64,000 bases of DNA from an uncultured Chloroflexia bacterium (GCA_963712735.1 CAVQIZ010000003.1:428855-492854); one strand, 5' to 3'; positions 2,361 through 36,126 are shown, numbered from the stretch's first letter. A program made the numbers and translations. The notes: a model not told the origin generated them from the letters alone.

Positions 2361-2444
2361 GTAGGCAGCGGGAGGCGATGAAGCGCGGCCCTTCGATCAT
2401 GGCCGCCTTGGACCGTGCCGAGCCACTGGCGAACCCGGCCCGCT
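2361..2444 (+). repeat. R-element, inverted (B-type) variant, ~20 nt upstream of the 2464 start codon
   Basis: GTAGGCAGCGGGAGGCGATG..GCGGCC..CATGGCCGCC..CCGAGCCACTGGCGAACCCGGCCCGCT. The same block recurs at 12707, 29706 and (3' half) 14150. 5' AGCGGG can pair with 3' CCCGCT, and GCGGCC with GGCCGC. Confidence 0.6.
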
Positions 2445-2463
2445 CACGCGATCGGGGGTGATC

Positions 2464-3018
2464 ATGCGGATGTTACGGCTGCGTCTATCGGTACTTGGGC
2501 TGAGCGTGATGCTCGCCCTCACCGCAATGGCATTCACGGCGCCTGCTGCGAGCGCTCACAGCGGCCACCCACACATCATCGTCCAGGTGGACAAGTGGAT
2601 CCACAAGGCCGAGAGCTGGGGCAACTACATGGGTGCTCGCTACATGATGAAGATCCGCAACGGCGGACTTCACTGGCGCAACCAGCACGGCTTCGGCGAT
2701 CTCGATGACGTGAAAGCGGGTGACAGTGGCACCGGCATCTACCCGCGATTCGTCCTCAGGATGGGGTGCGCCACTCCCGAGTTCGACGATTGGTGGGTGG
2801 CCGCCCGCAAGGTCTCCAAGACCGGCTTTCGCTACTACCGCGGCCAGGCCACGAACTACCGCTGGCTCGATCCGGTCGACCGCGAGAACCGGGCGTTCTT
2901 CAACGCGATGCTCTTCGATCGGTCGACAAAGCTGTACGACGATGCGCTGGACGACCTCTTCGACTGCATCCTCGACGAGAGCCGGGGGCCGCGCTGGCTG
3001 AAGAGACTGCTGTTCTAG
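2464..3018 (+). CDS. Secreted hypothetical protein
   Basis: MRMLRLRLSVLGLSVMLALTAMAFTAPAASA signal-peptide-like N-terminus. GGGGGTG RBS before the ATG at 2464. No family recognised. Confidence 0.6.
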   Translation: MRMLRLRLSVLGLSVMLALTAMAFTAPAASAHSGHPHIIVQVDKWIHKAESWGNYMGARYMMKIRNGGLHWRNQHGFGDLDDVKAGDSGTGIYPRFVLRMGCATPEFDDWWVAARKVSKTGFRYYRGQATNYRWLDPVDRENRAFFNAMLFDRSTKLYDDALDDLFDCILDESRGPRWLKRLLF

Positions 3019-3187
3019 GCCCCGTCGCGGTGGCCACTCCGCCGCTGGCGCATCGAGACCGGAAGGTGCAGTCTGCTCGTCGGGCCTGGTCCGGCACACT
3101 CGGGATCGGCTCGGCACGCGGTGAATGCCGAGCGGGGCCCGCACTGGCGACCACGGCAGTCGCAAGCGAACAAAGACGGGAGAACGG

Positions 3188-4072
3188 ATGATGAGACTGG
3201 GCATCAGCCTGCCACAGGGGTGCGACCGAGAGTACCTCGGTCTGTCGCCCACCCAGGCGTGGCGACGAACCATCGAGATCGCGCAGCTCTGCGAGGAGGC
3301 CGGCTTCGAGTCGCTCTGGATCAACGACCACTTCCAGGTCGACCCGCCGGTGGTCGAAGCGCCCATCTTCGAGCCCTTCGTCGAGCTCGCCGGCCTGGCC
3401 ATGGTCACGCATCGCGCCCGACTCGGCCACCTGGTGCTGGCGGCCGCCTACCGCAACCCGGCTCTCACCGCCAAGGCCATCTCGAGCCTGGACGTCATCA
3501 GCGGCGGTCGCGCCGTGCTGGGCATCGGCGCTGGCTGGAAGGAGGACGAGTGGATCGCCTACGGCTACGGCTTCCCAGACGCGAGGACGCGCCTGGCCAT
3601 CTTGCGTGACCATCTCGAGGTCATCAGCCGGATGCTGGCGCCCGGAAGAGCCACGTACCGCGGGCAGCATGCCCACGTCATCGATGCCGTACATGAGCCC
3701 AAGGGCGCGCACGGGCCGGTGCCCATACTCATCGGTGGCAACGGACCCAACGTGACCTGGCGGCTGGCCGCCCGTTTCGCCGACGAGCTCAATCTCGATG
3801 CACTCATGCCGGCCCAGGTCGCCGACGCGCTGCCCGTCGTCCGGGAACGCTGCGAGGAGATCGACCGCGACCCCACCACGCTGAAGGTATCGGTCTACCT
3901 CTGGGGCCCGCCCGCTGATGTGAGGCCCGGCCGGGAGCGCGTCGAGCGCTTGCTCGAATACGCCGAGCTGGGATTGGACGCGGCCATCGTGCAGGGCTAC
4001 ATGGGCACCACCGACCCCGCTGCGCTCGATTCCCTCATCGCGGACTGCCAGGCGACCGGCCTGTTGTCCTGA
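3188..4072 (+). CDS. LLM-class (luciferase-like) F420/flavin-dependent oxidoreductase
   Basis: MMRLGISLPQG...AEEAGFESLWINDHF...GGRAVLGIGAGW...GPVPILIGGNGP pattern typical of luciferase-like monooxygenase family proteins. Start taken at the internal ATG. Confidence 0.8.
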   Translation: MMRLGISLPQGCDREYLGLSPTQAWRRTIEIAQLCEEAGFESLWINDHFQVDPPVVEAPIFEPFVELAGLAMVTHRARLGHLVLAAAYRNPALTAKAISSLDVISGGRAVLGIGAGWKEDEWIAYGYGFPDARTRLAILRDHLEVISRMLAPGRATYRGQHAHVIDAVHEPKGAHGPVPILIGGNGPNVTWRLAARFADELNLDALMPAQVADALPVVRERCEEIDRDPTTLKVSVYLWGPPADVRPGRERVERLLEYAELGLDAAIVQGYMGTTDPAALDSLIADCQATGLLS

Positions 4073-4074
4073 GC

Positions 4075-4494
4075 CTACGCGGGCGGCCCGCCGATCCCGA
4101 GCTGCGCCATCATCCCGGCCATGTCCATCACGCCCCAGTGGGCGCTCGCCTTGCCATCGCGGAATTCGATGATGTCGATGGCGGCGATATCGAACGTCTT
4201 GCCGGTCGCGGGGATGCCCATGAACTCGCCCTGGTGGGTGCCGGAGAAGCGTACGCGGGCGATCACCTTGTCCCCATCCTCGAGCAGCTCCTCGACCGTC
4301 GCGTGGAAGTCGGGGAAGGCAGAACGCATCATGGTCATCAGCGCCCGCGGTGCCGCCTTGCCCGGCGGGATCCCGGGCGGAAGCTCCTCGTGCTCGACGA
4401 AGTCGTCGGCCAGGATCTCGTCGCCGAGGTCGAAATCGCCCTGGCTGAAGACCTCGTCGTAGAGGCGCAGCATCGTGGCCCTGTTGTCAGACAT
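4075..4494 (-). CDS. SnoaL-like ester cyclase family protein
   Basis: 139 aa. LYDEVFSQGDFDLGDEILADDFVEHE...FPDFHATVEELLEDGDKVIARVRFSGTHQGEFMGIPATGK is the typical ester cyclase / SnoaL fold signature. Confidence 0.75.
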   Translation of the reverse strand: MSDNRATMLRLYDEVFSQGDFDLGDEILADDFVEHEELPPGIPPGKAAPRALMTMMRSAFPDFHATVEELLEDGDKVIARVRFSGTHQGEFMGIPATGKTFDIAAIDIIEFRDGKASAHWGVMDMAGMMAQLGIGGPPA

Positions 4495-4665
4495 GGAGAA
4501 CCTCCCTGATCGTGGCCGGACCGCTGGGTCCGACGGTGGCTCGCGGCTGGATGCCGGCGAGCTGGCCCTTCTCGTGCTACGGGTCCCCCAAGGCGCGGCA
4601 GTCTACACCCTGGCTCGATCGCTGGATAGCTGGCGCTCCGTCTCGACCCAGCGGTCATGTGGCGC

Positions 4666-8771: not shown

Positions 8772-8813
8772 ACGCTTCGCCCCCCTGGCCACGACGTCAA
8801 GGGCCGAATGGCC
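8772..8813 (-). promoter_or_regulatory. R-element promoter module only (palindrome + TTGACG-N17-AAGCGT) for the 8745 gene
   Basis: Minus sense: GGCCATTCGGCCC-TTGACG-17 nt-AAGCGT, then a ~25-nt leader with GGAGGA before the ATG at 8745. Confidence 0.5.
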
Positions 8814-9467: not shown

Positions 9468-9495
9468 GGTCTCGTTCCTCCAAGCCGCTGTCTCG

Positions 9496-9537
9496 ATCGT
9501 CTGCACCTCGCTCCGCGCGTCAAGAGCCCTTCGGCCC
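9496..9537 (-). promoter_or_regulatory. R-element promoter module only (TTGACG-N16-GACGAT) for the 9467 gene
   Basis: Minus sense: GGGCCGAAGGGCTC-TTGACG-16 nt-GACGAT, then a ~28-nt leader with GGAGGA. Confidence 0.55.
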
Positions 9538-9551
9538 GCGGTGCGACTGCG

Positions 9552-10037
9552 CTAGCGCGAACCGATGCCGCTGCGCTGGGTCCGAGGCCATCGGGATCGG
9601 ACGCCGACGCCGATGAGCCACGCCACGGGAACGGCGATCAGCGAGATCATCACCCAGGTCCTGAAGCCGTCTCCCATGGATGGGTCAGCGAACCAGTACC
9701 GAGCGTCGAGCCCCAGCCAGAACGCGCCGATGAGCGCCGCAGCGAGGATGGCGCTCGCAACAAGCGCGGGCACGGGGCGCATGGATGCGCCGAGCACAAG
9801 CGCGAAACCGGCCGCCGACAGGAAGGGTGCGACGAAGAGCCATCCGCGGTAGTCATATCGGATACCGAGCAGATACGACACGATGCAGGCGACGCCGGCC
9901 AGCGCGAGCCCCACGACCAGCCCGGTGCCAGATCGGTCAGGCGGGGCAGCATGCTCAACCGCCTGCTTGGGTTCGCTCGTGGCGCCGATCTCCCGGGGCT
10001 CACGTTCCACCTTGCTCCTCCGATGCACCCATCTCAT
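9552..10037 (-). CDS. Integral membrane protein (about 4 TM); start uncertain (ATG 10037 or GTG 10028)
   Basis: Hydrophobic segments LVVGLALAGVACIVSYLLG, WLFVAPFLSAAGFALVLG, ALVASAILAAALIGAFWLG, WVMISLIAVPVAWLIGV. The predicted -10 overlaps the ATG at 10037, so a leaderless GTG at 10028 is possible. Confidence 0.6.
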   Translation of the reverse strand: MRWVHRRSKVEREPREIGATSEPKQAVEHAAPPDRSGTGLVVGLALAGVACIVSYLLGIRYDYRGWLFVAPFLSAAGFALVLGASMRPVPALVASAILAAALIGAFWLGLDARYWFADPSMGDGFRTWVMISLIAVPVAWLIGVGVRSRWPRTQRSGIGSR

Positions 10038-10137
10038 CCTTCGTGCCTCGGTCACGTGGTCAAGAGCCGGACGGCACGGCGTTGCTGCGCCGGCGACGGC
10101 CCACAGTCGGTCAGCCTTGTCGTCATGTACGCCATGC
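10036..10137 (-). repeat. R-element copy (degenerate body) with TTGACC-N16-AAGGAT
   Basis: GGTCAAGAGCCGGACGGCACGGC...CGGCGACGGCCCACAGTCGG...GTCATGTACGCCATG, aligned to the consensus on the plus strand. Confidence 0.5.
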
Positions 10138-12405: not shown

Positions 12406-12706
12406 GGTGCTGCCAACGGCCTGTGTGCGGATGGCCACGGCTACTCCCCGAGTGGCAGGACCTCGTCGAACCGGACTGCGGGCACCCCGCCGATCTCCAG
12501 GTGGGCATCGCTTCGTTCGAGAGCGGCAGCCCGGTCATGCCCATCCATGTCGTACAGCCACAGGTCGGAGAAGGGCGCTGATCGGACCGATGCCGAGCTC
12601 GGCGAAGGCCCGGCCCGGCTGCGTCGCCACGGAGTCGCAGCCCGGACAATGTCGCTGAGCAACAACCACGCCGGCTGCCCTGCCGGACGACCGCGCGAGA
12701 ATCATC

Positions 12707-12784
12707 GGTAGCGGGAGGCGATGAGGTGCGGCCCACACCCTGGCCGCCGGGACCGTGTCCGAGCCACTGGCGAATCCGGCCCGA
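12707..12784 (+). repeat. R-element, inverted (B-type) variant upstream of a Fam-2 gene
   Basis: GGTAGCGGGAGGCGATGAGGTGCGGCCCACACCCTGGCCGCCGGGACCGTGTCCGAGCCACTGGCGAATCCGGCCCG. Preceded by GAGAAT (-10-like) at 12697-12702. Confidence 0.6.
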
Positions 12785-12803
12785 CGATACGAAGGGGGAG
12801 GTC

Positions 12804-13352: not shown

Positions 13353-13420
13353 CCCGATCGCGCCGCCTCGGCTGCCTGCGCCATGGCGCGGATGACCCGA
13401 CCGACCCGCTCTACAGGGCG
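13353..13420 (-). repeat. R-element partial copy (distal M1 half only) between convergent genes
   Basis: CCGATCGCGCCGCCTCGGCTGCCTGCGCCATGGCGCGGATGACCCGACCGACCCGCTCTACAGGGCG. The same 3' flank follows the Fam-2 genes ending at 30347 and 34659. Confidence 0.5.
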
Positions 13421-13452
13421 CTTCCCGATGCATCGCGATCGCCGCGGACCTG

Positions 13453-14067: not shown

Positions 14068-14093
14068 CGGGCACCTCGAGGACGCTCATCTCC

Positions 14094-14189
14094 ATGCTCG
14101 ACCTGGTCGATGGGCCGGTCAAGGGCCGGACGGCCCGGCAGCCCCTGGCGGCGTGTGCCACGTCGAGCCACTGGCGAACCCGGCCCGCC
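14094..14189 (-). repeat. Chimeric R-element in a divergent intergenic region: A-type promoter end (TTGACC-N17-GAGCAT, facing 14067) joined to a B-type 3' half facing 14206
   Basis: GGTCAAGGGCCGGACGGCCCGGC followed by CCTGGCGGCGTGTGCCACGTCGAGCCACTGGCGAACCCGGCCCGC. Confidence 0.6.
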
Positions 14190-14738: not shown

Positions 14739-15223
14739 CCCACAGCCCCCATCGGGGGGATGTAGATGTGGTGCGGCAGGCTGCGGGGGTCGATGATCGG
14801 CATCGGCCACGCTTGACTGAACTCGTCATCGGTCAGGAGTGGTCGCAGCACCAGTAGCAAGGCGCCCGACGTGGCAGCCGTCCTGAGCGCGGCCATCGCA
14901 GCGTCATGGAGCGCCACGGTGTGATCGTGGACTCCCTGCAGTCCCGGGCCTGCGTCAAGCGTGGTGTCCATCGTCTGCTGGGTTTGCCGGGCGGCGGCAT
15001 CGACCTCGCTCAGGATCCCGTTCTTCGTGGCCCTGGACCGTGCGGTGTCGATGCCTCTCGTCGCATTCTCCAGGAGTCCGGTCGAGTCCTTCAGCACCTG
15101 CGCCATCGCCGCCCAGCCATCGGCATCGAGTATGGCTACCTCTTGCAGGTACGCCTCTACCTGTTCGGAGTTCGGTCCGTACCTCATGGCGTCGACTGTC
15201 ACTGCCTCGATCAGCGGATACAC
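14735..15223 (-). CDS. Hypothetical protein; start uncertain
   Basis: 162-aa ORF with helical, protein-like composition. The GTG at 15223 lies only 2 nt after the predicted -10, so GTG 15202 or ATG 15187 may be the true start. Confidence 0.55.
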   Translation of the reverse strand: MYPLIEAVTVDAMRYGPNSEQVEAYLQEVAILDADGWAAMAQVLKDSTGLLENATRGIDTARSRATKNGILSEVDAAARQTQQTMDTTLDAGPGLQGVHDHTVALHDAAMAALRTAATSGALLLVLRPLLTDDEFSQAWPMPIIDPRSLPHHIYIPPMGAVG

Positions 15224-15225
15224 CC

Positions 15226-15323
15226 ATCCTCCGCGCCCTGGTCAGCGGGTCAAGGGCCGGACGGCCCGGCAGTGCGGTCGTCAATGGCCGCGACGACCAA
15301 GCCAAATCCGCTATCCATGGCGG
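15226..15323 (-). repeat. R-element full copy with TTGACC-N16-GAGGAT
   Basis: AGCGGGTCAAGGGCCGGACGGCCCGGC...CAATGGCCGCGACGACCAAGCCAAATCCGCTATCCATGGCG. GGTCAA at 15248-15253 and ATCCTC at 15226-15231 (plus strand). Confidence 0.75.
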
Positions 15324-15508
15324 TTCGCGTTTCGCCCACGGGACGGCGGAACCGTTGGTCACTGACGAGGGTTTCGCACCCCAAGCGGCGTGCAGACGTC
15401 CGGCGGCGAACGTCGGTGATCGCTTCCCAACCCAGGTCCGCGACGGTGGGTGGACGGCCTCCCTGGGTCGCGTCCTTGTCGTGGGGCGGATGGAGGGCCG
15501 TTCGCCAC

Positions 15509-18184: not shown

Positions 18185-18208
18185 AGGACGGACGGAACGC
18201 TGATCGTG

Positions 18209-18296
18209 CCCCGCTCAGCGGGTCAGGGCTCGGAGGGCACGGCAGCGTGCGGCACCACGGCGGCGGCGACCGAGTCAAACCCGCGATCCATGGCGG
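18209..18296 (-). repeat. R-element copy (degenerate -35: TGACCC) between convergent genes
   Basis: CCCCGCTCAGCGGGTCAGGGCTCGGAGGGC...CACGGCGGCGGCGACCGAGTCAAACCCGCGATCCATGGCG. Confidence 0.55.
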
Positions 18297-18312
18297 TTCC
18301 ACAACGACAGGA

Positions 18313-19845: not shown

Positions 19846-19875
19846 GGCCGAAGTCCACTACCGCGCGACAGCTGA

Positions 19876-19955: not shown

Positions 19956-20112
19956 ACTCCTGAAGCCAGCCGACTCTGTGGCGATCATCGTCTGCCGATT
20001 TATCGGCAGGAAGGAATACCAACCTCTCGGCGATCGAGGCGGTCGCAGGACCAACGGCACTTGCTCGTCCTTGCGACTGAGTCCTTGATGGGCAGAGTGG
20101 AGGGAGGTCGAC

Positions 20113-21899: not shown

Positions 21900-21915
21900 C
21901 TACACCTCCGGCTCC

Positions 21916-22012
21916 ATCCTCCGCGTCCCGCTCAGCGGGTCAAGGGCCGGACGGCCCGGCGCCGTGGCGGCGCCATGGCGGCGACGACCAGACATCACTC
22001 GCTATTCATGCC
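21916..22012 (-). repeat. R-element full copy with TTGACC-N16-GAGGAT
   Basis: CCCGCTCAGCGGGTCAAGGGCCGGACGGCCCGGCGCCGTGGCGGCGCCATGGCGGCGACGACCAGACATCACTCGCTATTCATG. The stop codon of the 22002..23246 gene lies inside it. Confidence 0.8.
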
Positions 22013-23246
22013 GGTCCGGACCTGAGTTCTTGCCAAGGGCGGAGTACCTGGGCTTCTCCTCTCTGGGCAGGAACTCGAAGGTCTCGGCGATGGAGAGCCA
22101 GTCGTCACGCCTTGCCATTTGATCGACACCCTCGACCGGGATGCCCTCCACGCAGCTCAGGGTGATGAGTCGATGGCCGTCGAGGAAGACGAATTCGGAG
22201 CCGAACGATGTCGGCGACCACTGGACGTCGTGGCGCGCAGCTTGACCGGCAGGGAGGTCGATCCGCGCCCATGTCTGCGTCGGGTCGTCCTCGAAGTACT
22301 CCGAGTTCAGCTCGACCAGTTGCCTGATCGAGGTCACAGCTGACTCTTGGACCCACGCCTCGCAGTGTTGTCGGTTGCGAGGCCCCTCCTCCGCCAGTGA
22401 CGCCCAGAACACCATCTCGTGGCCTATCGCCATCCGGTCATCGAACAGTGCTCCGAGGGAACCCTCCAAGGCAGCACCGAGCCAGGAGCCGGTCGTCGGC
22501 ATCGACTCCAACAGCTGGATGAGGTCGGGGTGTGTCAGATCGGCAGCGATCCAGCCATCGGGCACCTCGAGGGCGAAACCAGGATCGGCGAGCTCGATCC
22601 GACCCCCGATCACGACAGGGCCGGGGGTCGCCGGCAGGAACTCGAAGGTCTTGGCGATGGAGAGCCAATCGTCTTCAGGACGGTCGCGCGAGCCGCAGCC
22701 GAGCACGTACCACGAATCCGGACTGACGAGGTAGTAGGTCCGAGAGTACAGACCGTCCTCGGCCAGGCGGCCTGTGTATGCGGCTTGGCCAGGCGGGACG
22801 TCGACGTAACCGCTGTCGATATCCACCGTCGTGGGGTCGATCCCGTATGCCTCGAGATCACCAGCGACGGCATCCTCGAGCGAGACCCAGGCTCGGTTGG
22901 CCTGATAGCTACGCGTGACATCCATGATGACGCACACCTGTCCTTCTCCTGCGGAGTAGGCCAACAACAGGACGTCCGTGCCATCTGGTACGCGATGGTC
23001 CGGCTCTTGAACTACCGACTCCGCCTCGCGTGTCGGCTGCCGGACGGTCCAGTCGTCGGGGAAGGTGACCGCGAAGCCTTCGGCTGCTTGCACGATGCGG
23101 CCCGCTTCGATGGCCGGGCCGAGGCCGGTCATGGCGGTGCGAGTATCGGTCTCGTCGGGTGCGTACATCGTCGGCTCCGCCGAGCCTTGGTCGCAAGACC
23201 CCACCGACGTGAGCGCAATCCCCAACAGGACCGCTGGCCTCGACAC
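22002..23246 (-). CDS. Fam-1 lipoprotein-like protein with two tandem modules
   Basis: GTG start, MSRPAVLLGIALTSVGSC. EGFAVTFPDDW...DDWLSIAKTFEFLPATPG, then GGRIELADPGFALEVPDGW...RDDWLSIAETFEFLPREE. Confidence 0.8.
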   Translation of the reverse strand: MSRPAVLLGIALTSVGSCDQGSAEPTMYAPDETDTRTAMTGLGPAIEAGRIVQAAEGFAVTFPDDWTVRQPTREAESVVQEPDHRVPDGTDVLLLAYSAGEGQVCVIMDVTRSYQANRAWVSLEDAVAGDLEAYGIDPTTVDIDSGYVDVPPGQAAYTGRLAEDGLYSRTYYLVSPDSWYVLGCGSRDRPEDDWLSIAKTFEFLPATPGPVVIGGRIELADPGFALEVPDGWIAADLTHPDLIQLLESMPTTGSWLGAALEGSLGALFDDRMAIGHEMVFWASLAEEGPRNRQHCEAWVQESAVTSIRQLVELNSEYFEDDPTQTWARIDLPAGQAARHDVQWSPTSFGSEFVFLDGHRLITLSCVEGIPVEGVDQMARRDDWLSIAETFEFLPREEKPRYSALGKNSGPDRHE

Positions 23247-23272
23247 GATTCGCCCCTCATGCGGATTCGTCT

Positions 23273-23366
23273 ATCGTCCCTGCCGCAGTCACCGGGTCAA
23301 GGGCTGGACGGCCTGGCAGCCGGCCTCGTCATGGTGGCGACGACCAGACCAGCCACGCCATGCATC
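23273..23366 (-). repeat. R-element copy with TTGACC-N16-GACGAT
   Basis: GGGTCAAGGGCTGGACGGCCTGGCAGCCGGCCTCGTCATGGTGGCGACGACCAGACCAGCCACGCCATGCATCG. Confidence 0.7.
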
Positions 23367-23450
23367 GCGATACCCACTCGCTACCGGGGCACGTGCCAGG
23401 ACGCTATATCGCCGGGGCGTGGAAGCGGGCCGAGGGGATGAGTCGGCGCC

Positions 23451-24626: not shown

Positions 24627-24728
24627 ATCGTTGGCGCGTCGCGTCAAGCCGGTCAAGTGACGGATGGCCCACGCCGCGTGCGCCTCGCCCCGGCGGCGAC
24701 GACCAGACCAAACCCGCCATTCATGGCG
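24627..24728 (-). repeat. R-element copy with duplicated -35 (TTGACC/TTGACG) and AACGAT
   Basis: GCGTCAAGCCGGTCAAGTGACGGATGGCCC...CGGCGGCGACGACCAGACCAAACCCGCCATTCATGGCG, followed by GCCGCTGGCGAATGGC (B-type-like motif). Confidence 0.7.
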
Positions 24729-24763: not shown

Positions 24764-25342
24764 CTAGGGGAGCAAGGGCATGGCCTCTTCGAGCGGCAAT
24801 CCGCCGGCGCCGATCGCATTGACCAGCATCTCGCCACTCGCGTAGATCACGATCCATTGGTTGTCCGGTCCTCGGTACACGGGCCACACCGTGCGGCCGC
24901 CGATGGTCTCCAGCGGCAGTGGGAAGTCGGGCGGCAGTCCCGCATCTTCTGCTGTCCTCATCCACATGCTCTCCAACAGAACCCTGCCTTCGACGCCATC
25001 GACACGAAAGGCGTTGATCGCGTAGGCCGGCGTCGTGGTCAGATCAGCGGCGAAGGCTTGGGCGATACGGAGGTCATCGGCCGTCTTCCCAAGAGCGGTG
25101 AGCACATCCGCGATGGCCTCGGTGCCTGCCGAGTCTGCGAGGGCGCCAGGTCCCGTCAAGACACGCACCGTGAGGGGGATCCCGCCCAGCTCCTGCGGCA
25201 TGAGGACCGACAAGTCGTCGGGCGGCACCGGTGACGAGTCCGGAGGCTCCGACGCGATCACCATCCCGCCGAAAGCCAAGACGACAGCAGCCAGGATCAG
25301 CGCCGCAACGCTACGTCGCACGAGTCCACCACCTTTGCCCAT
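24764..25342 (-). CDS. Secreted protein carrying the stand-alone linker module
   Basis: Membrane/signal segment VAALILAAVVLAFGGMVIA. LTALGKTADDLRIAQAFAADL...AFRVDG is colinear with VGRSIDDLTVATALHE...ALRVEG of 10231..12405. Confidence 0.7.
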   Translation of the reverse strand: MGKGGGLVRRSVAALILAAVVLAFGGMVIASEPPDSSPVPPDDLSVLMPQELGGIPLTVRVLTGPGALADSAGTEAIADVLTALGKTADDLRIAQAFAADLTTTPAYAINAFRVDGVEGRVLLESMWMRTAEDAGLPPDFPLPLETIGGRTVWPVYRGPDNQWIVIYASGEMLVNAIGAGGLPLEEAMPLLP

Positions 25343-25361
25343 GTCCTCCCCACCCTACTCC

Positions 25362-25437
25362 CTGGGCAAGAGCCGCTCGGCCCGTAGCGCGCAACGCCAT
25401 GGCGGCGGCGACCAGACCGAACCCACAATGCATGGCG
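25362..25437 (-). repeat. R-element copy (-35 TTGCCC)
   Basis: CTGGGCAAGAGCCGCTCGGCCCGTAGCGCGCAACGCCATGGCGGCGGCGACCAGACCGAACCCACAATGCATGGCG. Confidence 0.7.
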
Positions 25438-25489
25438 ATCTTGTTGGTGAGTGGCTGCTGGCGCTGCGAGGCAAGCCTGGGGACCGAAG

Positions 25490-26647: not shown

Positions 26648-26673
26648 CGATCCTCTACGTGCGGCTACCGCTC

Positions 26674-26765
26674 ATCCTCCGCACCCCGGTGAGGGGGTCA
26701 AGGGCCGGACGGCCCGCACGGCGTGTGTCGCCATGGCGGCCACTAGCGCCGTCGCGGAACGCGTG
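26674..26765 (-). repeat. R-element copy (distal half degenerate) with TTGACC-N16-GAGGAT
   Basis: GGGGGTCAAGGGCCGGACGGCCCGCACGGCGTGTGTCGCCATGGCGGCCACTAGCGCC... ATCCTC at 26674-26679. Confidence 0.6.
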
Positions 26766-26769
26766 ATGT

Positions 26770-26886: not shown

Positions 26887-26908
26887 GCCGCACCTCCGTA
26901 CGGTTTCC

Positions 26909-27006
26909 ATAGTGCTCGCCCCGTGCAGTAGGTCAAGAGCCGTACGGCCTCGCCGCGTGTGTCGCCATGGCGGCGGCGACCAGGCCAAACCCGCTATTCA
27001 TGGCGA
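26909..27006 (-). repeat. R-element full copy with TTGACC-N16-CACTAT
   Basis: GGTCAAGAGCCGTACGGCCTCGCCGCGTGTGTCGCCATGGCGGCGGCGACCAGGCCAAACCCGCTATTCATGGCG. Confidence 0.8.
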
Positions 27007-27065
27007 TCGCCTACTCGCCTGATCAAGGGTGCTTCGCCAGGCCTCCTCCTGACGTCGAAGCGCGA

Positions 27066-27101: not shown

Positions 27102-28262
27102 ATGCCCCCGCCAGAAGCATCGGTCGAGGCAGTCGCGCGCGCCGCGCTCGCTGACCCCGCGGCGCAGTTGCTGGATTGGTCCGAGATGCCCCTGGGCGGA
27201 GGCTTGACCGCGGAGATCGGGACAAGCGGTGGCGTGCTCAGAGTGCGTGGCCGTGCCCGCTCAAGGGGACAGCCTGTCAGTTGGAGCGCGATCCAGAAGC
27301 TTGTGCGGCCGAGCGCGATCGCGTGGGGCGACGGCACCATTCCTCGGGATGATCCGCGCGGCTTCGAGTACTGGCGTCGCGAGCCCGAGGCATACCGGGA
27401 CGGCCTCCTCGACGAACTCGGACCTCGGTTGTCGGCGCCGCGCTGTTTCGGCGTGCACGAGGACGATCTGGGCATGGTCATCTGGATCGAGGACGTCGAT
27501 GACGACGGGCCCGAAGTATGGGGCCTCGACGACTACCGCGAGGCCGCTCGCGCGCTGGGGGGTTGGAACGGCACCTACCTCGTGGGTCGTCCGCTGCCCG
27601 AGCGGCCGTGGTTCACGCGGAGTCGGATCCCCGACTGGCTGGAGCTGGGAGGCCCAGGCATCGAAGCGATGTCGTCGGCGCGACGCACTGGTCTGCTGGA
27701 GGCCTGGCTCGACGATGCCATGGTGAGGCGCCTACAGGCGCAGTGGACGATGCGCGATCGTCTCATCGAGATCCGTGAACGACTGCCGCAGACCTTGTGT
27801 CACCACGATGCGACCCGTCGGAACCTCGCTTTCCGCGGGGCCGGTGCGGAGCAAACCGTCGTGGCCATCGACTGGCAGTTCATCGGCGCAGGACACCTGG
27901 GCGACGAGATCGCAGCCATGGTGACGGCTACCCTGCAATTCCTCGATGTCCCCGCGAACGACGCTCGAGCGTTCGGGGAGGCGGCTCTCGACGGCTACGT
28001 CGATGGCCTGAGGGACGCGGGCTGGACCGGTGCGCGATCACTCGTGGAGCTTGGCTTCAAGGCCTCCGCGGCACTGCTGATGGGACTCGGCGGCGCCGGG
28101 CTTTGGTTCGAGGGCTTCCGGAACGGGCTGATGACCGAGGCACTCGCCGAGCGGATCGTGGGCCGGTCAGTCGATGAGCTCGGCGCGGCGTGGCCGACTG
28201 TCCAGTCCTACTTCCTCGACCTCGGCGATGAGGCTCTGGAACTGTCAACGCGTCTCGACTAG
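27102..28262 (+). CDS. Aminoglycoside-phosphotransferase-fold kinase family protein
   Basis: LCHHDATRRNL (HxDxxxxN catalytic loop) and VAIDWQFIGAGHLGDE (D-x-x metal-binding motif). The upstream part of the 431-aa ORF is just translated R-element. Confidence 0.75.
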   Translation: MPPPEASVEAVARAALADPAAQLLDWSEMPLGGGLTAEIGTSGGVLRVRGRARSRGQPVSWSAIQKLVRPSAIAWGDGTIPRDDPRGFEYWRREPEAYRDGLLDELGPRLSAPRCFGVHEDDLGMVIWIEDVDDDGPEVWGLDDYREAARALGGWNGTYLVGRPLPERPWFTRSRIPDWLELGGPGIEAMSSARRTGLLEAWLDDAMVRRLQAQWTMRDRLIEIRERLPQTLCHHDATRRNLAFRGAGAEQTVVAIDWQFIGAGHLGDEIAAMVTATLQFLDVPANDARAFGEAALDGYVDGLRDAGWTGARSLVELGFKASAALLMGLGGAGLWFEGFRNGLMTEALAERIVGRSVDELGAAWPTVQSYFLDLGDEALELSTRLD

Positions 28263-28287
28263 GTCTTCGCCCCGCGCCTGCTCGAGC

Positions 28288-28354
28288 GGAGACGGCCTGG
28301 CCGCGTGCTCAGCCCTGGCGGCGACGACCAGACATAGCCCGCTATCCATGGCGG
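28288..28354 (-). repeat. R-element partial copy (distal half) between convergent genes
   Basis: GGAGACGGCCTGGCCGCGTGCTCAGCCCTGGCGGCGACGACCAGACATAGCCCGCTATCCATGGCGG. Confidence 0.6.
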
Positions 28355-28411
28355 TTCCGGCCTGCCCTACTCACCCGTCTCTCCGATGAGCGTCGGAGCG
28401 CATTCGCGTGC

Positions 28412-28789: not shown

Positions 28790-28820
28790 GATGAGCTTCT
28801 CGGTATCTCGTGCCGGGACT

Positions 28821-28918
28821 ACGGTCCCGCACCCCATTCATTGGGTCAAGAGCTGGAAGGCATAACGGCTGCCGTCACCATGGCGGCGACGACCAGACCA
28901 AACCCGCTACTCATGGCG
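28821..28918 (-). repeat. R-element full copy with TTGACC-N17-GACCGT
   Basis: GGGTCAAGAGCTGGAAGGCATAACGGCTGCCGTCACCATGGCGGCGACGACCAGACCAAACCCGCTACTCATGGCG. Confidence 0.8.
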
Positions 28919-28925
28919 GTATGGC

Positions 28926-29535
28926 CTAGCCTTCGGTGGGCAGGAACTCGAAGGACTCGGCGATCGCCAGCCACAAGTCGTCGCGACGGGTAGCAGCCAC
29001 GCAGTCCATGAGGTAGTACCAGCCACGGTGTAGCCACTCGAAGGTGGCGTCCTCCTCGGAGCCCGCCGGTCCCTGGGACAGGAACGAGCGTAGTGCATTC
29101 CCAGAGGGCAGAACGATCGGCTCACGACGGACGGCGGCGTAGTACTCCTCGTCCGACTCCTTCCGCATCACCGCAAGGTCCGCCAAGGTCATCTCGTCGC
29201 ATGGCCACGTATCGACGTAGACGTTGTTGCGCCAGTCAGCTGGGTCGCCCGCGAGAAGAGCCGTGGTCATCTGTTGACCGGCTATCACCGACCGCGACTC
29301 GTCGTCGAATTGCTCCATCGCCTCGGCAAGGTCGGGATGCCAGAAGATCGAAGGCGATCCAGTCGTCGGGCACCGAGAGGCCGAAGCCTGCTGGATGGAC
29401 GTGGATGCGCCCGCCAACGACGATGGGAGCATCCGCCTCGCTGTCGGGTGACGGTGTGTCCCACGCCTGGTCGCCGGAGGCGCTGCGGTCGAGCCAGTCG
29501 CCGAACTCCCCAAGGAACGGAGATGGGTGATGCAT
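28926..29535 (-). CDS. Fam-1 protein, frame-disrupted at ~29340 as assembled
   Basis: GGRIHVHPAGFGLSVPDDWIAFDL (ORF 29236..29571) continues in ORF 28926..29636 as HPDLAEAMEQFDDES...DDLWLAIAESFEFLPTEG. Removing one G of CTGGCA restores AFDLLHPDLAEA. Confidence 0.65.
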
Positions 29536-29562
29536 GTCATCCCCTTCGCGTGGCCATCTCTC

Positions 29563-29654
29563 AGTCTCCACGCCACTCTCCAGCGGGTCAAGGGCCGGAC
29601 GGCCGCCCCTGTGCCATGGCGGCGACGACCAGACATAACCCGCTACTCGTGGCG
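29563..29654 (-). repeat. R-element full copy with TTGACC-N17-GAGACT
   Basis: CAGCGGGTCAAGGGCCGGACGGCCGCCCCTGTGCCATGGCGGCGACGACCAGACATAACCCGCTACTCGTGGCG. Confidence 0.8.
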
Positions 29655-29705
29655 GTGCTCAAGCACCAACAGCGAGCACGATGGACGGCGGCGGGACAAT
29701 GGTAC

Positions 29706-29782
29706 GTAGCGGGAGGCAGCGAAACGCGGTCCACACCATGGCCGCCGGGACCGCGCCGAGCCACTGGCGAACCCGGCCCGCC
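29706..29782 (+). repeat. R-element, inverted (B-type) variant upstream of a Fam-2 gene
   Basis: GTAGCGGGAGGCAGCGAAACGCGGTCCACACCATGGCCGCCGGGACCGCGCCGAGCCACTGGCGAACCCGGCCCGCC. GACAAT (-10-like) lies just upstream. Confidence 0.65.
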
Positions 29783-29804
29783 TACAGGCCGAGGAGGCTT
29801 GTCC

Positions 29805-30347: not shown

Positions 30348-30388
30348 CTGGATCGCGCCGCGTCGGCCGCCTCGGTCGCCACGCTCGG

Positions 30389-30466
30389 CCGGTCAACGCC
30401 CGACGGCCCGGCGGCGGGACGTTGCCATGGCGGCGACGACCAGGCCGAACCGCTGTACTTGGCGAT
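30389..30466 (-). repeat. R-element copy downstream of a Fam-2 gene (no usable -10)
   Basis: CCGGTCAACGCCCGACGGCCCGGCGGCGGGACGTTGCCATGGCGGCGACGACCAGGCCGAACCGCTGTACTTGGCG. Confidence 0.7.
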
Positions 30467-30471
30467 CCTGC

Positions 30472-31056
30472 CTACTCCTGCTCCTCGGGCAGGAACTCGA
30501 TGGTCTGGGCGATCGACAGCCAGTCATCGTCGGGCGCTTCGTCGAGGCTCGTACACCAGAGCCAGACGCAGCCGGGATCCCTCGCGATGACGAACACGGA
30601 ATGGAACACGTCCCGGCCCTGGTGCCGCGTGCGCTGGATGAGGTGGGACGCATGGCCAGCGGGCACGTCCATCTCGATGACACCGAAGCTGTCGTCAGGC
30701 AGGAGGAGGATCGCGAGCGAGAAGGCGACGTCGCGGGTGGTCAGCGGGAGAGGTTGCCATCGGGGTGTGAGGTCGAACGGCCCCAGGTCGCAGTGTTCTT
30801 GTCGCTGCTCATACGCCGGAGCGATCCCACGCGCCAGCACGGGGAAGATCGGGATGGCCGGCCCCTGCATCCGTCCCGCGCGTGTCCTCGGGAGTGCCTC
30901 GGGTGTGACGAGGACCTCCCAGTCGACTGGATACGTCTCCGCGACGTCAGCCCATGGCATCTCGATCCGCTGCCCTGTGGCCGTCGTGACGGGCTCGGGT
31001 GACTCTGCGGCAGCGGCGACGGCATCGGCCGCCGACAGTGCCACCACCACCAGCAT
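30472..31056 (-). CDS. Fam-1 secreted protein; start uncertain
   Basis: MLVVVALSAADAVAAAA...; C-terminal PDDDWLSIAQTIEFLPEEQE. The upstream portion of the 242-aa ORF is translated R-element. Confidence 0.7.
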   Translation of the reverse strand: MLVVVALSAADAVAAAAESPEPVTTATGQRIEMPWADVAETYPVDWEVLVTPEALPRTRAGRMQGPAIPIFPVLARGIAPAYEQRQEHCDLGPFDLTPRWQPLPLTTRDVAFSLAILLLPDDSFGVIEMDVPAGHASHLIQRTRHQGRDVFHSVFVIARDPGCVWLWCTSLDEAPDDDWLSIAQTIEFLPEEQE

Positions 31057-31121
31057 CGTCACGAATCGAGTCCTCTTCGTCCTTGCTGTGGATGCCTTCT
31101 TCTTCCCCGCGCCGCTCTCCC

Positions 31122-31220
31122 GGTTCAAGGGCCGGACGGCCCGGCGGCCCGGCGGCCCGGCGGCTTGGCGGCTTGGCGGCCATGGTGGCACCGACCACAT
31201 ATCACCCGCGCTTCATGGCG
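31122..31220 (-). repeat. R-element copy containing an 8-nt microsatellite (GGCCCGGC x3, GGCTTGGC x2)
   Basis: GGTTCAAGGGCCGGACGGCCCGGCGGCCCGGCGGCCCGGCGGCTTGGCGGCTTGGCGGCCATGGTGGCACCGACCACATATCACCCGCGCTTCATGGCG. Confidence 0.7.
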
Positions 31221-31408
31221 ATATCGGGACGCTCGTCGTAGTCCAGCGAGGATGCGCGAGCGGAATCCAGGAACCCGCTGAGCAATATGATGGCCAGCAC
31301 GATCACCATCACGCCGAGGAGCAGTGGCAAATCGCGCCGCCAGCGAGACCTCTGATTGATCTCAGCTTGCAGCTCTCGATCCAACTCTGGATCACCGCGC
31401 GAGTACAT
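31202..31408 (-). CDS. 68-aa single-TM protein; last codons and stop lie inside the R-element
   Basis: MYSRGDPELDRELQAEINQRSRWRRDLPLLLGVMVIVLAIILLSGFL... GGGAGG RBS. Downstream of a TCGACC-N17-CACGAT promoter. Confidence 0.45.
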   Translation of the reverse strand: MYSRGDPELDRELQAEINQRSRWRRDLPLLLGVMVIVLAIILLSGFLDSARASSLDYDERPDIAMKRG

Positions 31409-31433: not shown

Positions 31434-31520
31434 ATCGTGTGGGCGCGACCGCTGATGGTCGAGTGCCGGACGGCCCGGCGCCATGGCGGCGACGACCAGA
31501 CATCTCCGCTCTTCATGGCG
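31434..31520 (-). repeat. R-element copy with TCGACC-N17-CACGAT
   Basis: GGTCGAGTGCCGGACGGCCCGGCGCCATGGCGGCGACGACCAGACATCTCCGCTCTTCATGGCG. Confidence 0.7.
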
Positions 31521-31560
31521 GTCTCGTGGCTTGCAGCTCACGGCGCGCAGGCCGTGGTTA

Positions 31561-32640: not shown

Positions 32641-32665
32641 CAGGCCCCCCGATGCGGCTGTCTCC

Positions 32666-32750
32666 ATCCTCCGTGATCTGGTCAGGGGGTCAAGGGCCGG
32701 ACGGCCCGCGCCCTGGCGGCGACGACCAGACCATCCGCAATGCCTGGCGG
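32666..32750 (-). repeat. R-element copy with TTGACC-N16-GAGGAT
   Basis: GGGGGTCAAGGGCCGGACGGCCCGCGCCCTGGCGGCGACGACCAGACCATCCGCAATGCCTGGCGG. Confidence 0.75.
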
Positions 32751-32965
32751 TTCTGGGGCACCGTGACCGCGAAACCGTACTCAGGCATCTCCACCCCATC
32801 ACCGGCCGCGTCGTCAGAGGCGCCGGCAGGCCTGGCCACGATGATCATCAACGCGATGACGACACCGACGGCGACGGTGACCGCGATGACCAGGCGACCC
32901 GTCTTGCTCAGTCCCCATCTCGGAGGGGGGTCTCCGGGGTGGGTGAACCTCCAGCCTTGTGGCAT
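32690..32965 (-). pseudogene. Membrane-anchored Fam-1 remnant truncated by the R-element
   Basis: MPQGW...GRLVIAVTVAVGVVIALMIIVA...EMPEYGFAVTVPQN opens a Fam-1 module (GFAVTVP). It then runs into repeat sequence and stops at the TGA of the repeat's TTGACC. Confidence 0.4.
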
Positions 32966-32971
32966 GCCCCC

Positions 32972-33068
32972 ATCGTCCCCGCCCCGCTCAGCGGGTCAAG
33001 GGCCGGACGGCCCGGCGGCATGCGTGGCCATGGCGGCGACGACCAGACCAAACCCGCTATTCATGGCG
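32972..33068 (-). repeat. R-element, near-consensus full copy with TTGACC-N16-GACGAT, 6 nt before the ATG at 32965
   Basis: CCCCGCTCAGCGGGTCAAGGGCCGGACGGCCCGGCGGCATGCGTGGCCATGGCGGCGACGACCAGACCAAACCCGCTATTCATGGCG. Confidence 0.85.
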
Positions 33069-33192
33069 ATGCTGGAACGGTCCTGGGGAGTGACTTGACG
33101 CGGCCACTAGCCTTGTGGCTCGCGCCGGTCCGGCAGGCAGCAGAAGGCTTGTCCGTCCCCGGATGCACCGCGAGGGCAAAGGAGCATCTTTC

Positions 33193-33787: not shown

Positions 33788-33827
33788 CCTGCGACGACGA
33801 CCAGACCAAACCCGCTATTCATGGCGG
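33788..33827 (-). repeat. R-element partial copy (distal half)
   Basis: CCTGCGACGACGACCAGACCAAACCCGCTATTCATGGCGG directly after the Fam-2 stop. Confidence 0.6.
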
Positions 33828-33863
33828 TTCTGGGCCACCGCCATCGCGTGGTTGGACACCCGC

Positions 33864-34659: not shown

Positions 34660-34727
34660 CCCGATAGGCCGCCTCGGCTGCCTGCGCCATGGCGGCGGCG
34701 ACCAGACATGACCCGCTGTACATGGCG
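34660..34727 (-). repeat. R-element partial copy (distal half) between convergent genes
   Basis: CCCGATAGGCCGCCTCGGCTGCCTGCGCCATGGCGGCGGCGACCAGACATGACCCGCTGTACATGGCG. Confidence 0.6.
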
Positions 34728-34785
34728 ATCCCGGCCTGTCCTACTCAGCCGCTACTCCGGTGAGCGCCGGAGCGCCTTCGCGTGC

Positions 34786-35163
34786 TCAAGACCACCGGAT
34801 CGCGACCACGCATGCGACGAGTGGACCGACCAGCAGATATGTGGAGAAGTACAGCCCTGACGCCACGCCTGCACCGAGGTGGTGGTGGGCGTGGAACTCG
34901 AGAAGCCCGAAGAACAGGGCCATGGTGGCGACCCAGCCCAGGAACGTGCCCACCGCCAGCACGATCGGCAGGGCCAACAAGTCCCACTCCGCAAGGGCGA
35001 CGATGACTCCGGCGATGGCGGCAACCACGCCAGCCGGGAACCATCCGATGAACAACACGGCCTGCGTCGAACCGCCGTCGTCGAGGACGGTGAAGCATGC
35101 GCGACAGAGCCGTTCGCCGTACTCCACTCGTGCGCCGCAATTCAGGCAGTGCGCTGAACGCAT
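34786..35163 (-). CDS. Zn-ribbon membrane protein, paralog of 28412..28789
   Basis: MRSAHCLNCGARVEYGERLCRACF plus hydrophobic helices. The 5' leader is also conserved at nucleotide level with the paralog. Confidence 0.7.
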   Translation of the reverse strand: MRSAHCLNCGARVEYGERLCRACFTVLDDGGSTQAVLFIGWFPAGVVAAIAGVIVALAEWDLLALPIVLAVGTFLGWVATMALFFGLLEFHAHHHLGAGVASGLYFSTYLLVGPLVACVVAIRWS

Positions 35164-35194
35164 GATGAGCTTCTCGGTATCTCGTGCCGGGACC

Positions 35195-35284
35195 ACGGTC
35201 CCGCGCACCGGTCAGCGGGTCAAGGGCCGGACGGCCCAGCGGCCACGGCGATGACGACCAGACCAAACCCTCTATACATGGTGG
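35195..35284 (-). repeat. R-element full copy with TTGACC-N17-GACCGT
   Basis: GTCAGCGGGTCAAGGGCCGGACGGCCCAGCGGCCACGGCGATGACGACCAGACCAAACCCTCTATACATGGTGG. Confidence 0.8.
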
Positions 35285-35316
35285 TTCTGGAGTGGCCTCC
35301 AGTGGCTCGCGCCCGG

Positions 35317-36000
35317 CTACTCCTCGGCGGGCAGGAACTCGATGGACTCGGCGATGGCGAGCCAGCGGTCGGCGTGGCGCGTCGCGTCCATGCAGGTCAG
35401 CGAGTAGCCGCGGCCATCGTGCAACAGGAGGTAGACGGTCCTCGCGAGTTCGCCACCCCCGGGGTAGGGCGTCGCATACTCGACCATGCCTGCCCGCCCG
35501 GACGGCAGGTCGACGAAGACGGGCACGGGGTCGGCGGTCGAGTCCACCATGGTCCGCATCGTCAGCAGCTGGGCCGCCACCATGAGGTCGAGTGACGCCG
35601 TGGCTATCGGTTCGACGGCCATGTTGCAGTTCTCGCCGGCGGTCGGCCCATCGAGCGGTGCGAGTGCGATGAGGGGCAGCTCGACGAGCGGATACGCCGC
35701 CGCCAGGTCCGGCGCCACGCTCTCGACGCTGAAGGAGGCCATCGTCGGCGCCAGCGCCGCGGTCAGTTCATCGAAGGACTCCATCGCCGCGCCGAGGCCC
35801 GGGTCCAGGAGGTCGAAGGCGTACCAGCCCTCGGGCACGGTGAGCGCGAAGCCCGCTGAGGGGACCTCGATACGGCCCCCGAGGACGACCGGCCCCGCGT
35901 GCGTTCCGACCTCGGGTGTCGGCGATTGCGCCGTGACAGCGGAGCCACCACCGATGCCCATCAGGCTCAGGACCAGGAACACCACCGTCAGTCGCCGCAT
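35317..36000 (-). CDS. Fam-1 secreted protein (single module)
   Basis: MRRLTVVFLVLSLMGIGGGSAVTA; GGRIEVPSAGFALTVPEGWYAFDLLDPG; C-terminal HADRWLAIAESIEFLPAEE. Confidence 0.8.
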   Translation of the reverse strand: MRRLTVVFLVLSLMGIGGGSAVTAQSPTPEVGTHAGPVVLGGRIEVPSAGFALTVPEGWYAFDLLDPGLGAAMESFDELTAALAPTMASFSVESVAPDLAAAYPLVELPLIALAPLDGPTAGENCNMAVEPIATASLDLMVAAQLLTMRTMVDSTADPVPVFVDLPSGRAGMVEYATPYPGGGELARTVYLLLHDGRGYSLTCMDATRHADRWLAIAESIEFLPAEE

Positions 36001-36029
36001 CCATCCATCCCCACTTGCGATCGCCCCAC

Positions 36030-36126
36030 ATCCTCCGCGCCCGGGCCAGCGGGTCAAGGGCCGGACGGCCCGGCAGTGTGCTGCGCCATGGCGGCGACGA
36101 CCAGACATAACCCGCTATCCATGGCG
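36030..36126 (-). repeat. R-element full copy with TTGACC-N16-GAGGAT
   Basis: CCAGCGGGTCAAGGGCCGGACGGCCCGGCAGTGTGCTGCGCCATGGCGGCGACGACCAGACATAACCCGCTATCCATGGCG. Confidence 0.85.

Follow-up and report, generated by a model that had tools for sequence, protein, structure and literature searches.

The Correia elements (CREE) of Neisseria, promoter-bearing miniature inverted-repeat transposable elements (MITEs), have 26-bp terminal inverted repeats, duplicate a TA, insert in both orientations, and form folds that are substrates of RNase III. In Borrelia burgdorferi, a highly conserved region of ~145 bp, the erp operator or "upstream homology box", is found 5' of every erp operon. These operons code for polymorphic surface lipoproteins, and the region, to which BpaB, BpuR, and EbfC bind, gives them coordinated expression (PMC9112904). 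Here we describe a repeat family in a stretch of 64,000 nucleotides from an uncultured Chloroflexia bacterium (GCA_963712735.1, CAVQIZ010000003.1:428855-492854; this whole stretch is called the window). The family is real, previously undescribed, and most likely regulatory rather than mobile. It is built from two modules, a promoter-like half (P) and a 43-nt upstream half (D), whose anatomy, modularity, orientation rules, and selection at the level of plain sequence, free of coding or structural constraint, can be read from the alignments. On balance, this comparison of sequences favors a reading in which P and D together form an array-wide control region, a promoter with a 43-base upstream module, before or between nearly all genes in variable arrays of exported-protein genes from uncultured soil Chloroflexota.

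An initial annotation of the window had counted 31 copies of an intergenic element in its accessory half. Both halves of the consensus proposed there occur far above chance (5 and 11 matches with ≤3 mismatches against 0 expected from 100 shuffles), and repeat finding in the window returned families of 19, 12, 17, and 13 copies. A profile hidden Markov model (HMM) made from 10 window copies and scanned with nhmmer at a threshold of E < 0.05 gave 27 matches plus one fragment at E = 0.19, corresponding to 24 strong and 3–4 weak copies. All of these lie on the minus strand within 8783–36134, in line with the single orientation that had been reported for the 27 noninverted copies. The reported confinement to the accessory half, with no copy in 38–64 kb, also holds, in that the profile found nothing better than E = 0.2 in 36.2–64 kb or below 8.7 kb; the core half, with the his operon and the genes for a class A penicillin-binding protein, MutS2, PheST, and ThrRS, is without credible copies. 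A stricter pooled search recognized 16 two-module, 5 distal-half-only, and 3 promoter-half-only copies in the window, a split into full and partial copies that differs slightly from the original one. Four entries of the original count, described as inverted and divergent copies, do not belong to the family: those at 2361, 12707, and 29706 are c-di-GMP-II-GAG riboswitch aptamers (RF03169, 44–58 bits), and that at about 33864 is related to their leader but truncated. A comparison with Rfam, which had been proposed as a check, produced a known family only for these inverted entries (RF03169 or relatives), and the element itself has no match at gathering score or at E ≤ 1. Assembly artefacts were considered as well and rejected, since the copies are not identical to each other and 18 independent assemblies as well as many metagenome contigs contain the family.

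All module sequences are given in the minus-strand reading, the strand of most array genes, and the modules were defined from pooled alignments. P spans ~50 bp and consists, in this order, of a palindrome (GGGCCGTCCGGCCC, at about −49 to −36), the hexamer TTGACC as putative −35 element, a 16-nt spacer, the hexamer GAnGAT as putative −10 element, and a conserved A 7 nt further on. TTGACC is the best-conserved hexamer of P (1.7–1.9 bits). GAnGAT stands at a constant 16 nt from it, with 1.55–1.67 bits at A2, A5, and T6, and the spacer between them is semiconserved and contains a second palindrome (CCCGCTnAGCGGG). Downstream of this −10 element follow a short leader with a Shine-Dalgarno sequence and then a start codon, mostly 25–29 nt after the −10. 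P therefore has promoter geometry, and the label "promoter-proximal part" given to this half by the initial annotation was apt. The features of a sigma-70-type promoter, i.e., hexamers at 16–18 nt spacing, a purine ~7 nt on, and a co-oriented gene, are all found in P. Every intact P in the window precedes a co-oriented gene, and P is decayed where the next gene lies on the opposite strand (18197–18313, 28252–28370, and 30377–30475). A hydrophobic, signal-peptide-like N-terminus is encoded by 74 of the 95 open reading frames (ORFs) downstream of P, and the riboswitch promoter of the same loci has a −10 of the same CGCG-GAGRAT type as P. This pattern strongly suggests that P is the promoter of each array gene, with the conserved A 7 nt after GAnGAT as the likely, predicted transcription start. 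At the copy with the predicted +1 at 32965, this A is also that of the ATG, and the mRNA may be leaderless.

D is a run of 43 positions, YCGCCATGnATAGCGGGTnnnGTCTGGTCGTCGCCGCCATGGC, almost all of which carry 1.2–1.9 bits; only position 9 and the central triplet are variable. The module sits at about −60 to −105 relative to P, with a poorly conserved spacer of ~10–13 nt in between, and the D–P spacing has two modes, 32–33 and 22–23 nt, that lie ~10 nt apart. The polarity of D is fixed. Its right end faces P, and its left end faces the divergent riboswitch promoter, at about −40 or −50. In the pooled set (window, 18 assemblies, and metagenomes), the riboswitch aptamer starts 40–41 or 50–52 nt from the left end of 39 D copies, giving two spacing classes that are again ~10 nt apart. 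D occurs at tandem, divergent, and convergent gene junctions alike. The 262 matches of the pooled set include 79 copies with both modules, 95 with D only, and 62 with P only. Since each half is also found alone, D and P are separable modules rather than one unit.

Related genomes were sampled as 8-kb blocks. An exact 18-mer from P is present in at least 111 such blocks of a species-representative genome set, and a profile search located the family in 18 assemblies, nearly all of them "uncultured Chloroflexia" metagenome-assembled genomes (MAGs) of one soil survey. The others are a MAG of Candidatus Limnocylindrales and one that bears the label Gammaproteobacteria. The contig of the latter (L039, CAWAOU010000003.1) carries two P copies and array-type genes, and this occurrence probably reflects misbinning or mislabelling, not true presence outside Chloroflexota. 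The remaining 18-mer blocks, from Streptomyces and other taxa, have no profile match and are chance matches. A D-specific pattern returned 120 metagenome contigs, many of them with arrays mostly of D alone. Among 2.9 million viral contigs, 1 and 3 exact matches were found, which is the chance level and gives no link to phages. The window is not part of the assembly set, where its best relatives share 94–95% DNA identity in pieces. At loci with at least three matches, all copies lie on a single strand in 32 cases and on both strands in 6.

The initial annotation had offered selection, homogenization, or recent spread as reasons for the conservation of the element. Full copies share on average 72% identity within a genome and 73.5% between genomes, and the nearest relative of a copy resides in the same genome for only 16 of 59 copies. 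On these grounds we rejected a recent burst and concerted homogenization. The lack of any within-genome excess of similarity argues instead for long-term purifying selection, and the comparison points to copies held to a functional consensus. The element is indeed more conserved than the flanking paralogous genes, as had been stated, but less so than orthologous genes between species (81–94% identity in DNA versus ~72–74% for element copies).

The array of the window (~2.4–36 kb) is located between an ABC-F gene and a sigma/his region. In CAVPJO an array directly adjoins the his operon (L082), and in CAVQJC one adjoins the ABC-F orthologue (L025). Most array genes have no Pfam family; those that can be identified encode a family of secreted proteins with the C-terminal sequence WLSIAESFEFLPxEE, Kelch-repeat proteins, zinc-ribbon membrane proteins, a SecDF-P1-like protein, and alpha/beta hydrolases. 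Besides the aptamers in the window, 27 c-di-GMP-II-GAG/-GCG aptamers are found in 19 related loci (L004–L218; e.g., L218 5358–5443 and L034 2553–2637), and their density in the arrays is very high. These aptamers and the one at 29703 in the window are divergent from the left end of D, and D stands beside ~22 of 30 aptamers. To our knowledge, the ligand of the GAG/GCG variants has not been established.

An extracytoplasmic function (ECF) sigma factor and its putative anti-sigma factor are encoded at the edge of the window array. Orthologues of the sigma factor lie inside D arrays in L091 (6402–7768), L151 (4885–6248), and L189 (~880–960) and in core context in L112 and L113. The sigma gene's own promoter, GTGAAT-N18/19-CGTCTAGT-N-GTCGTGATGGG, is conserved in six orthologues, apparently leaderless, and of autoregulatory type. 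The anti-sigma candidate has an outer domain with paralogues among the plus-strand, riboswitch-controlled array proteins (31% identity, E 1e-15). Pfam content was determined for 261 ORFs of arrays from 35 loci, and among the recurrent families listed the ECF sigma family (5 matches) is the only regulator family. No recombinase is among these families, and the only mobile-element protein is one IS110 transposase. P was rejected as a target of the ECF sigma factor because the conserved promoter of the sigma gene is unlike P.

How does the family act, if not as a DNA control region? Action at the level of RNA or peptide would involve a structured leader, a small RNA, or a 22-codon leader peptide. 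Several short palindromes can be drawn as hairpins, and the symmetries listed in the initial annotation are all present in the consensus (CGCCATGGCG, a second CATGGCG ~33 nt off, GGGCCG-GA-CGGCCC, and AGCGGGT/ACCCGCT). However, two candidate stems of D (CGCCATG/CATGGCG and GCGG/CCGC) show one-sided and zero compensatory changes across 180 unique copies, and four candidate helices of the full copies (n = 59), including AGCGGGT/ACCCGCT, show one-sided changes only. RNAalifold yields −8 kcal/mol with a covariation term of −0.05, and single-sequence folds of both strands have z-scores of −1.4 to +0.6, no better than shuffled sequence; the missing Rfam match points the same way. The peptide would be MNSGFGLVVAAMAxHxAGPSGP*, read from an ATG...TGA frame whose stop overlaps TTGACC. 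Of 59 full copies, 19 retain this frame intact, and a 9-nt in-frame deletion is common to five copies. Yet only about half of the 59 copies keep any frame ending at this stop, many have early stops or no start codon, indels are in frame in 10 and out of frame in 25 cases, which is the chance ratio, and third codon positions are as invariant as first and second ones. Action through RNA or peptide thus appears very improbable, and D is constrained as plain sequence, without coding or structural constraint. The initial annotation had raised another possibility, namely a nonautonomous mobile element of the MITE or Correia type, here with an outward-facing promoter. Many dispersed copies with no transposase nearby (none was found among ~50 window ORFs scanned, in line with the initial annotation) and a promoter borne on a repeat, as in Correia elements, would suit such an origin. 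So would the region upstream of the orthologous ABC-F genes (94% DNA identity), where L025 has an intact D+P at 3690–3810 and the window a decayed D and no P (2198–2340). The P segment of L025 is flanked by a 9-nt direct repeat (CCAGGCGGG); microhomology-mediated deletion explains this repeat equally well, and no general target-site duplication flanks the copies. The inverted termini measure no more than 7 nt, and no compensatory change among the 59 and 180 copies maintains them. Moreover, the copies fold at the level of shuffled sequence, keep a single, gene-linked orientation instead of inserting both ways, and diverge to the same level in all 18 assemblies with no burst in any genome, and their halves occur independently. 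This leaves a mobile element with hardly any likelihood.

A second, distal promoter in D that depends on the ECF sigma factor would provide each array gene with tandem promoters, D and P. D contains TGAATA-N16-CGTC, which resembles the sigma promoter kept in the six orthologues, and the sigma-derived pattern GAAT-N16-20-TCGTC matches only the sigma site and D copies in the window (6 versus 1.9 expected). TGnAT is present and CGTC is intact in ~84% of D copies. D is also co-oriented with the array genes, these genes encode exported proteins, ECF sigma is the sole regulator family among the recurrent ones listed for the arrays, and D arrays surround the sigma/anti-sigma pair at 4 of 6 orthologous loci. 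The sigma promoters all keep the first A of GAAT, but no other position of D is conserved so little (0.32 bits, with A in only 55% of copies), and neither the frequency of this A nor the integrity of CGTC depends on a P downstream. The spacing in D is 17 nt, 1–2 nt shorter than the 18–19 nt of the six sigma promoters. Spacer and flanks are conserved to the same degree as the putative −35 and −10, a pattern not accounted for by recognition by a sigma factor on its own, and many D-only copies are directed into the 3' end of a gene that converges on them. We therefore regard the ECF-dependent promoter as possible but doubtful. Inspection of D by eye for a plus-strand promoter revealed no P-like hexamers, and this candidate was rejected. 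D could also be a cassette boundary at which either an integron-like site-specific recombinase or simply dispersed homology drives gain, loss, and shuffling of cassettes. Such a role would account for one D orientation per array whatever the strand of the flanking genes, for the presence of D at every type of junction, and for an array content that varies strongly between species (shared genes with 25–80% protein identity and different neighbors) next to syntenic core genes (ABC-F, his operon). The sigma cassette has opposite orientations in the window and in L091, and an IS110-family element is inserted exactly within one D copy. Against this stands that no integrase or recombinase is among the recurrent Pfam families listed for the array ORFs or the window ORFs scanned, that D has neither hairpin nor R''/R' core sites, that the breakpoints of the inverted sigma cassette are 135–150 nt off D, and that homology between orthologous cassettes has no fixed end point in D. 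Recombination at D seems unlikely on this evidence. A wider version, in which D is the site of an undescribed Chloroflexota DNA transaction system, either hairpin-free integron-like cassette exchange or nucleation of a spreading or insulating protein that delimits transcription units, is also improbable in our view. If it were true, the arrays would be a dedicated cassette platform that diversifies the exported proteome and is connected both with an orphan c-di-GMP-II-like riboswitch and with an ECF sigma factor.

We prefer to read D and P as a control region. P would fire as a sigma-70-type promoter for its array gene, with the palindromes GGGCCGTCCGGCCC and CCCGCTnAGCGGG as operator sites, and D would be a double-stranded site recognized by one or several dedicated proteins. 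Bound to D, these proteins would act on both adjoining promoters, P and the divergent riboswitch promoter; they may also delimit transcription units, with D as a border mark between converging genes. On entering an array, genes from unrelated families would thereby join one regulon, and dozens of unrelated exported-protein genes would form such a regulon because each carries its own copy. The regulon is probably tied to the array-embedded ECF sigma/anti-sigma pair. For D itself, we see roughly an even chance that it is a protein-bound control or boundary module. Several observations weigh against this picture. The two D–P spacing modes could stem from a few deletion variants by descent rather than from selection for helical phase. 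As many as 73 D copies adjoin neither a P nor a recognizable riboswitch promoter, and many of these lie between convergent 3' ends, so a pure activator-site role cannot cover every copy. Furthermore, 43 contiguous constrained positions are unusually long for one binding site, and no candidate D-binding protein emerged. As to P, GAnGAT shares 3 of 6 positions with TATAAT, and a generic sigma-70 scan of the window makes no call at P because the −10 is weak compared to TATAAT.

Table 1. Copies of the two modules and neighboring features in the window
Feature	Position	Strand	Context	Score
D+P	36015..36134	-	upstream of exported-protein gene 35317-~36010 (-)	nhmmer E 4e-31
D+P, D-P spacer 9 nt shorter	35192..35298	-	upstream of zinc-ribbon membrane protein gene 34786-35208 (-)	
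D-only	34675..34742	-	between convergent genes 34786-35208 (-) and 33889-34659 (+); followed by conserved 3'-flank motif GCAGGCAGCCGAGGCGG	
D-only, truncated	33791..33834	-	left end toward truncated riboswitch-type leader/promoter of gene 33889-34659 (+)	
Consensus D+P	32957..33085	-	D 33069-33027; palindrome 33013-33000; TTGACC 32999-32994; GACGAT 32977-32972; predicted +1 A 32965	
Partial D + P	32654..32756	-	upstream of gene 31561-32666 (-)	
D + partial P	31457..31526	-	upstream of small gene 31202-31426 (-)	
D+P with short GC-rich tandem expansion (GGCGGCCC-like units, ~31137-31172) in D-P spacer	31090..31229	-	upstream of gene 30472-~31090 (-)	
D + decayed P	30377..30475	-	adjoins 3' end of + gene ending 30347	
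D+P	29558..29664	-	upstream of gene 28926-~29555 (-); riboswitch 29703-29787 divergent from left end	
D+P	28819..28935	-	upstream of zinc-ribbon membrane protein gene 28412-28837 (-)	
D + decayed P	28252..28370	-	no co-oriented gene next; overlaps 3' end of gene 26967-28262 (+)	
D+P	26897..27025	-	upstream of small membrane-protein ORF (~26890-26750, -)	
P-only	26666..26740	-	upstream of Kelch-repeat gene 25490-26647 (-)	
D+P	25331..25453	-	upstream of gene 24764-25342 (-)	
D + atypical P	24640..24728	-	upstream of gene 23451-~24640 (-)	
D+P	23259..23387	-	upstream of gene 22002-23246 (-)	
D+P	21911..22025	-	upstream of gene 20736-21899 (-)	
D+P	19844..19972	-	upstream of gene 19315-19845 (-)	
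D-only	19238..19294	-	~90 nt from weak P at 19098-19146	
Weak, diverged P	19098..19146	-	upstream of SecDF-P1-like gene 18313-19110 (-)	E 0.036
D + decayed P (TTGACC to CTGACC, -10 lost)	18197..18313	-	no co-oriented gene next	
D+P	15211..15337	-	upstream of gene 14735-15223 (-)	
P-only	14092..14152	-	upstream of gene 13453-14067 (-)	
Weak D-only	13370..13433	-	between gene 13453-14067 (-) and 3' end of gene 12726-13352 (+)	E 0.006
P-only	10033..10098	-		
Weak P-only	9487..9542	-	upstream of gene 8832-9506 (-)	E 0.009
Very weak P fragment (palindrome + TTGAC)	8783..8813	-		E 0.19
Decayed right half of D	2272..2295	-	upstream of ABC-F gene; orthologous site in L025 is an intact D+P	
c-di-GMP-II-GAG riboswitch aptamer	29703..29787	+	divergent from D	RF03169, 58.5 bits
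c-di-GMP-II-GAG riboswitch aptamer	12705..12790	+		RF03169, 44.2 bits
c-di-GMP-II-GAG riboswitch aptamer	2362..2449	+		RF03169, 58.2 bits
ECF sigma factor 36341-36931 and putative anti-sigma factor 36928-37719	36296..37719	+	promoter-like TGAATA-N17-CGTCTA at 36303-36331	

Some further features of the modules deserve mention. Small predicted membrane-protein ORFs immediately follow P copies at ~26750–26890 (−) and 32690–32965 (−). In several P-only copies a different motif, (GA)ACACACCCGCTCC, is conserved upstream where D would otherwise stand (L004 ~3263, L029 ~1645, L084 ~2499, L012 ~6548, L033 ~506, L064 ~1719, L091 ~1140, and L106 ~929). The half-site ACCCGCT recurs in this motif, in D (as AGCGGGT), and in the spacer palindrome of P. 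The GGCGGCCC-like expansion at 31137–31172 makes the D–P spacer of that copy ~20 nt longer. A scan for intrinsic terminators found none at the elements except one weak match inside a copy, at 24715–24728. D-only copies are often bordered on one side by a co-oriented gene's stop codon and on the other by the conserved 3' flank (GCAGGCAGCCGAGGCGGCGCGATGGGG) of a riboswitch-type gene that converges on them. A conserved 3' flank reading TAG-CCCCATCGCGCCGCCTCGGCTGCCTGCG in gene sense separates the stop codon of opposite-strand array genes from D; it was seen in the window at 34650–34675, 13353–13370, and 30348–30377 and at many D-only loci (e.g., L004 ~740 and L111 ~1680). The IS110-family element mentioned above (DEDD_Tnp_IS110 and Transposase_20; L102 5268–~6703) splits its D copy at the point where ..ACCCGCT meets ATTCATGGCG.., and no duplication is visible. 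Elements of the IS110 type are known to target repeats of this kind, and D may be a landing site for this family.

Other observations concern the array genes. Riboswitch aptamers precede genes for small secreted proteins ending in ..IFEGEMPPxPE. At 33840–33900 (+), the window contains a truncated riboswitch-type leader with the same promoter and the same TAGCGGGAGGCGATG start but no Rfam call, which runs straight into the Shine-Dalgarno sequence and ATG of gene 33889–34659. Three Kelch-repeat beta-propeller proteins are encoded at 9883–12405 (+), 15555–17699 (+), and 25490–26647 (−), with internal DNA repeats of ~144 nt, and the same family is present in arrays of other MAGs.

The repeat defines a large and easily recognized set of putatively co-regulated genes in soil and sediment Chloroflexota, organisms without genetics and with scant functional annotation. 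Three regulatory devices meet in one type of locus: the repeated control region, the ECF sigma/anti-sigma pair, and the c-di-GMP-II-GAG/GCG riboswitch variants. The orphan riboswitch variants thereby gain a testable context, with a fixed divergent layout beside D and with targets paralogous to the sensor domain of the anti-sigma candidate. With 43 constrained positions, fixed polarity, and presence at every junction type, and with no structure or coding signal, D is a clear target for DNA pull-down. This module and its fixed coupling to the orphan riboswitch variants and the ECF pair are the chief reason for follow-up. The family also cautions annotators that a dense intergenic repeat on one strand is not necessarily a mobile element.

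Comparison with described systems places the family apart from each of them. Like the attC sites of sedentary chromosomal integrons (e.g., the Vibrio cholerae repeats), the element splits gene units of ~1 kb by a conserved repeat of similar size, keeps one orientation even for reversed genes, and accompanies variable content at a fixed chromosomal position. Unlike attC, D lacks the folded hairpin, its consensus has no RYYYAAC/GTTRRRY core sites, no integrase is among the window ORFs scanned or the Pfam families listed for the array loci, and the units carry their own strong promoter-like module. With Correia elements the family shares the form of a short, many-copy intergenic repeat able to supply promoter elements, but none of the 26-bp terminal inverted repeats, the TA duplication, the dual orientation, or the RNase III-type fold. 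The promoters of ECF sigma regulons come to mind because the arrays include or adjoin a sigma/anti-sigma pair, D resembles the sigma promoter in TGAAT...CGTC, and the targets are extracytoplasmic; in D, however, the putative −35 is least conserved, the spacing is 1–2 nt short, and the whole 43 nt are constrained. The closest known system in logic is the erp operator. There is no sequence relation, and the D+P region differs in serving many unrelated gene families, in residing in chromosomal tandem arrays of Chloroflexota rather than before single operons on cp32 prophage plasmids, and in the behavior of D, which is separable, also stands promoterless at convergent gene ends, and is coupled to a divergent riboswitch promoter. 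In both cases, conserved noncoding DNA of ~100–150 bp, made of promoter elements and upstream DNA to which proteins bind in Borrelia and would bind in D, stands 5' of each divergent exported- or surface-protein gene and would place these genes under one shared control.

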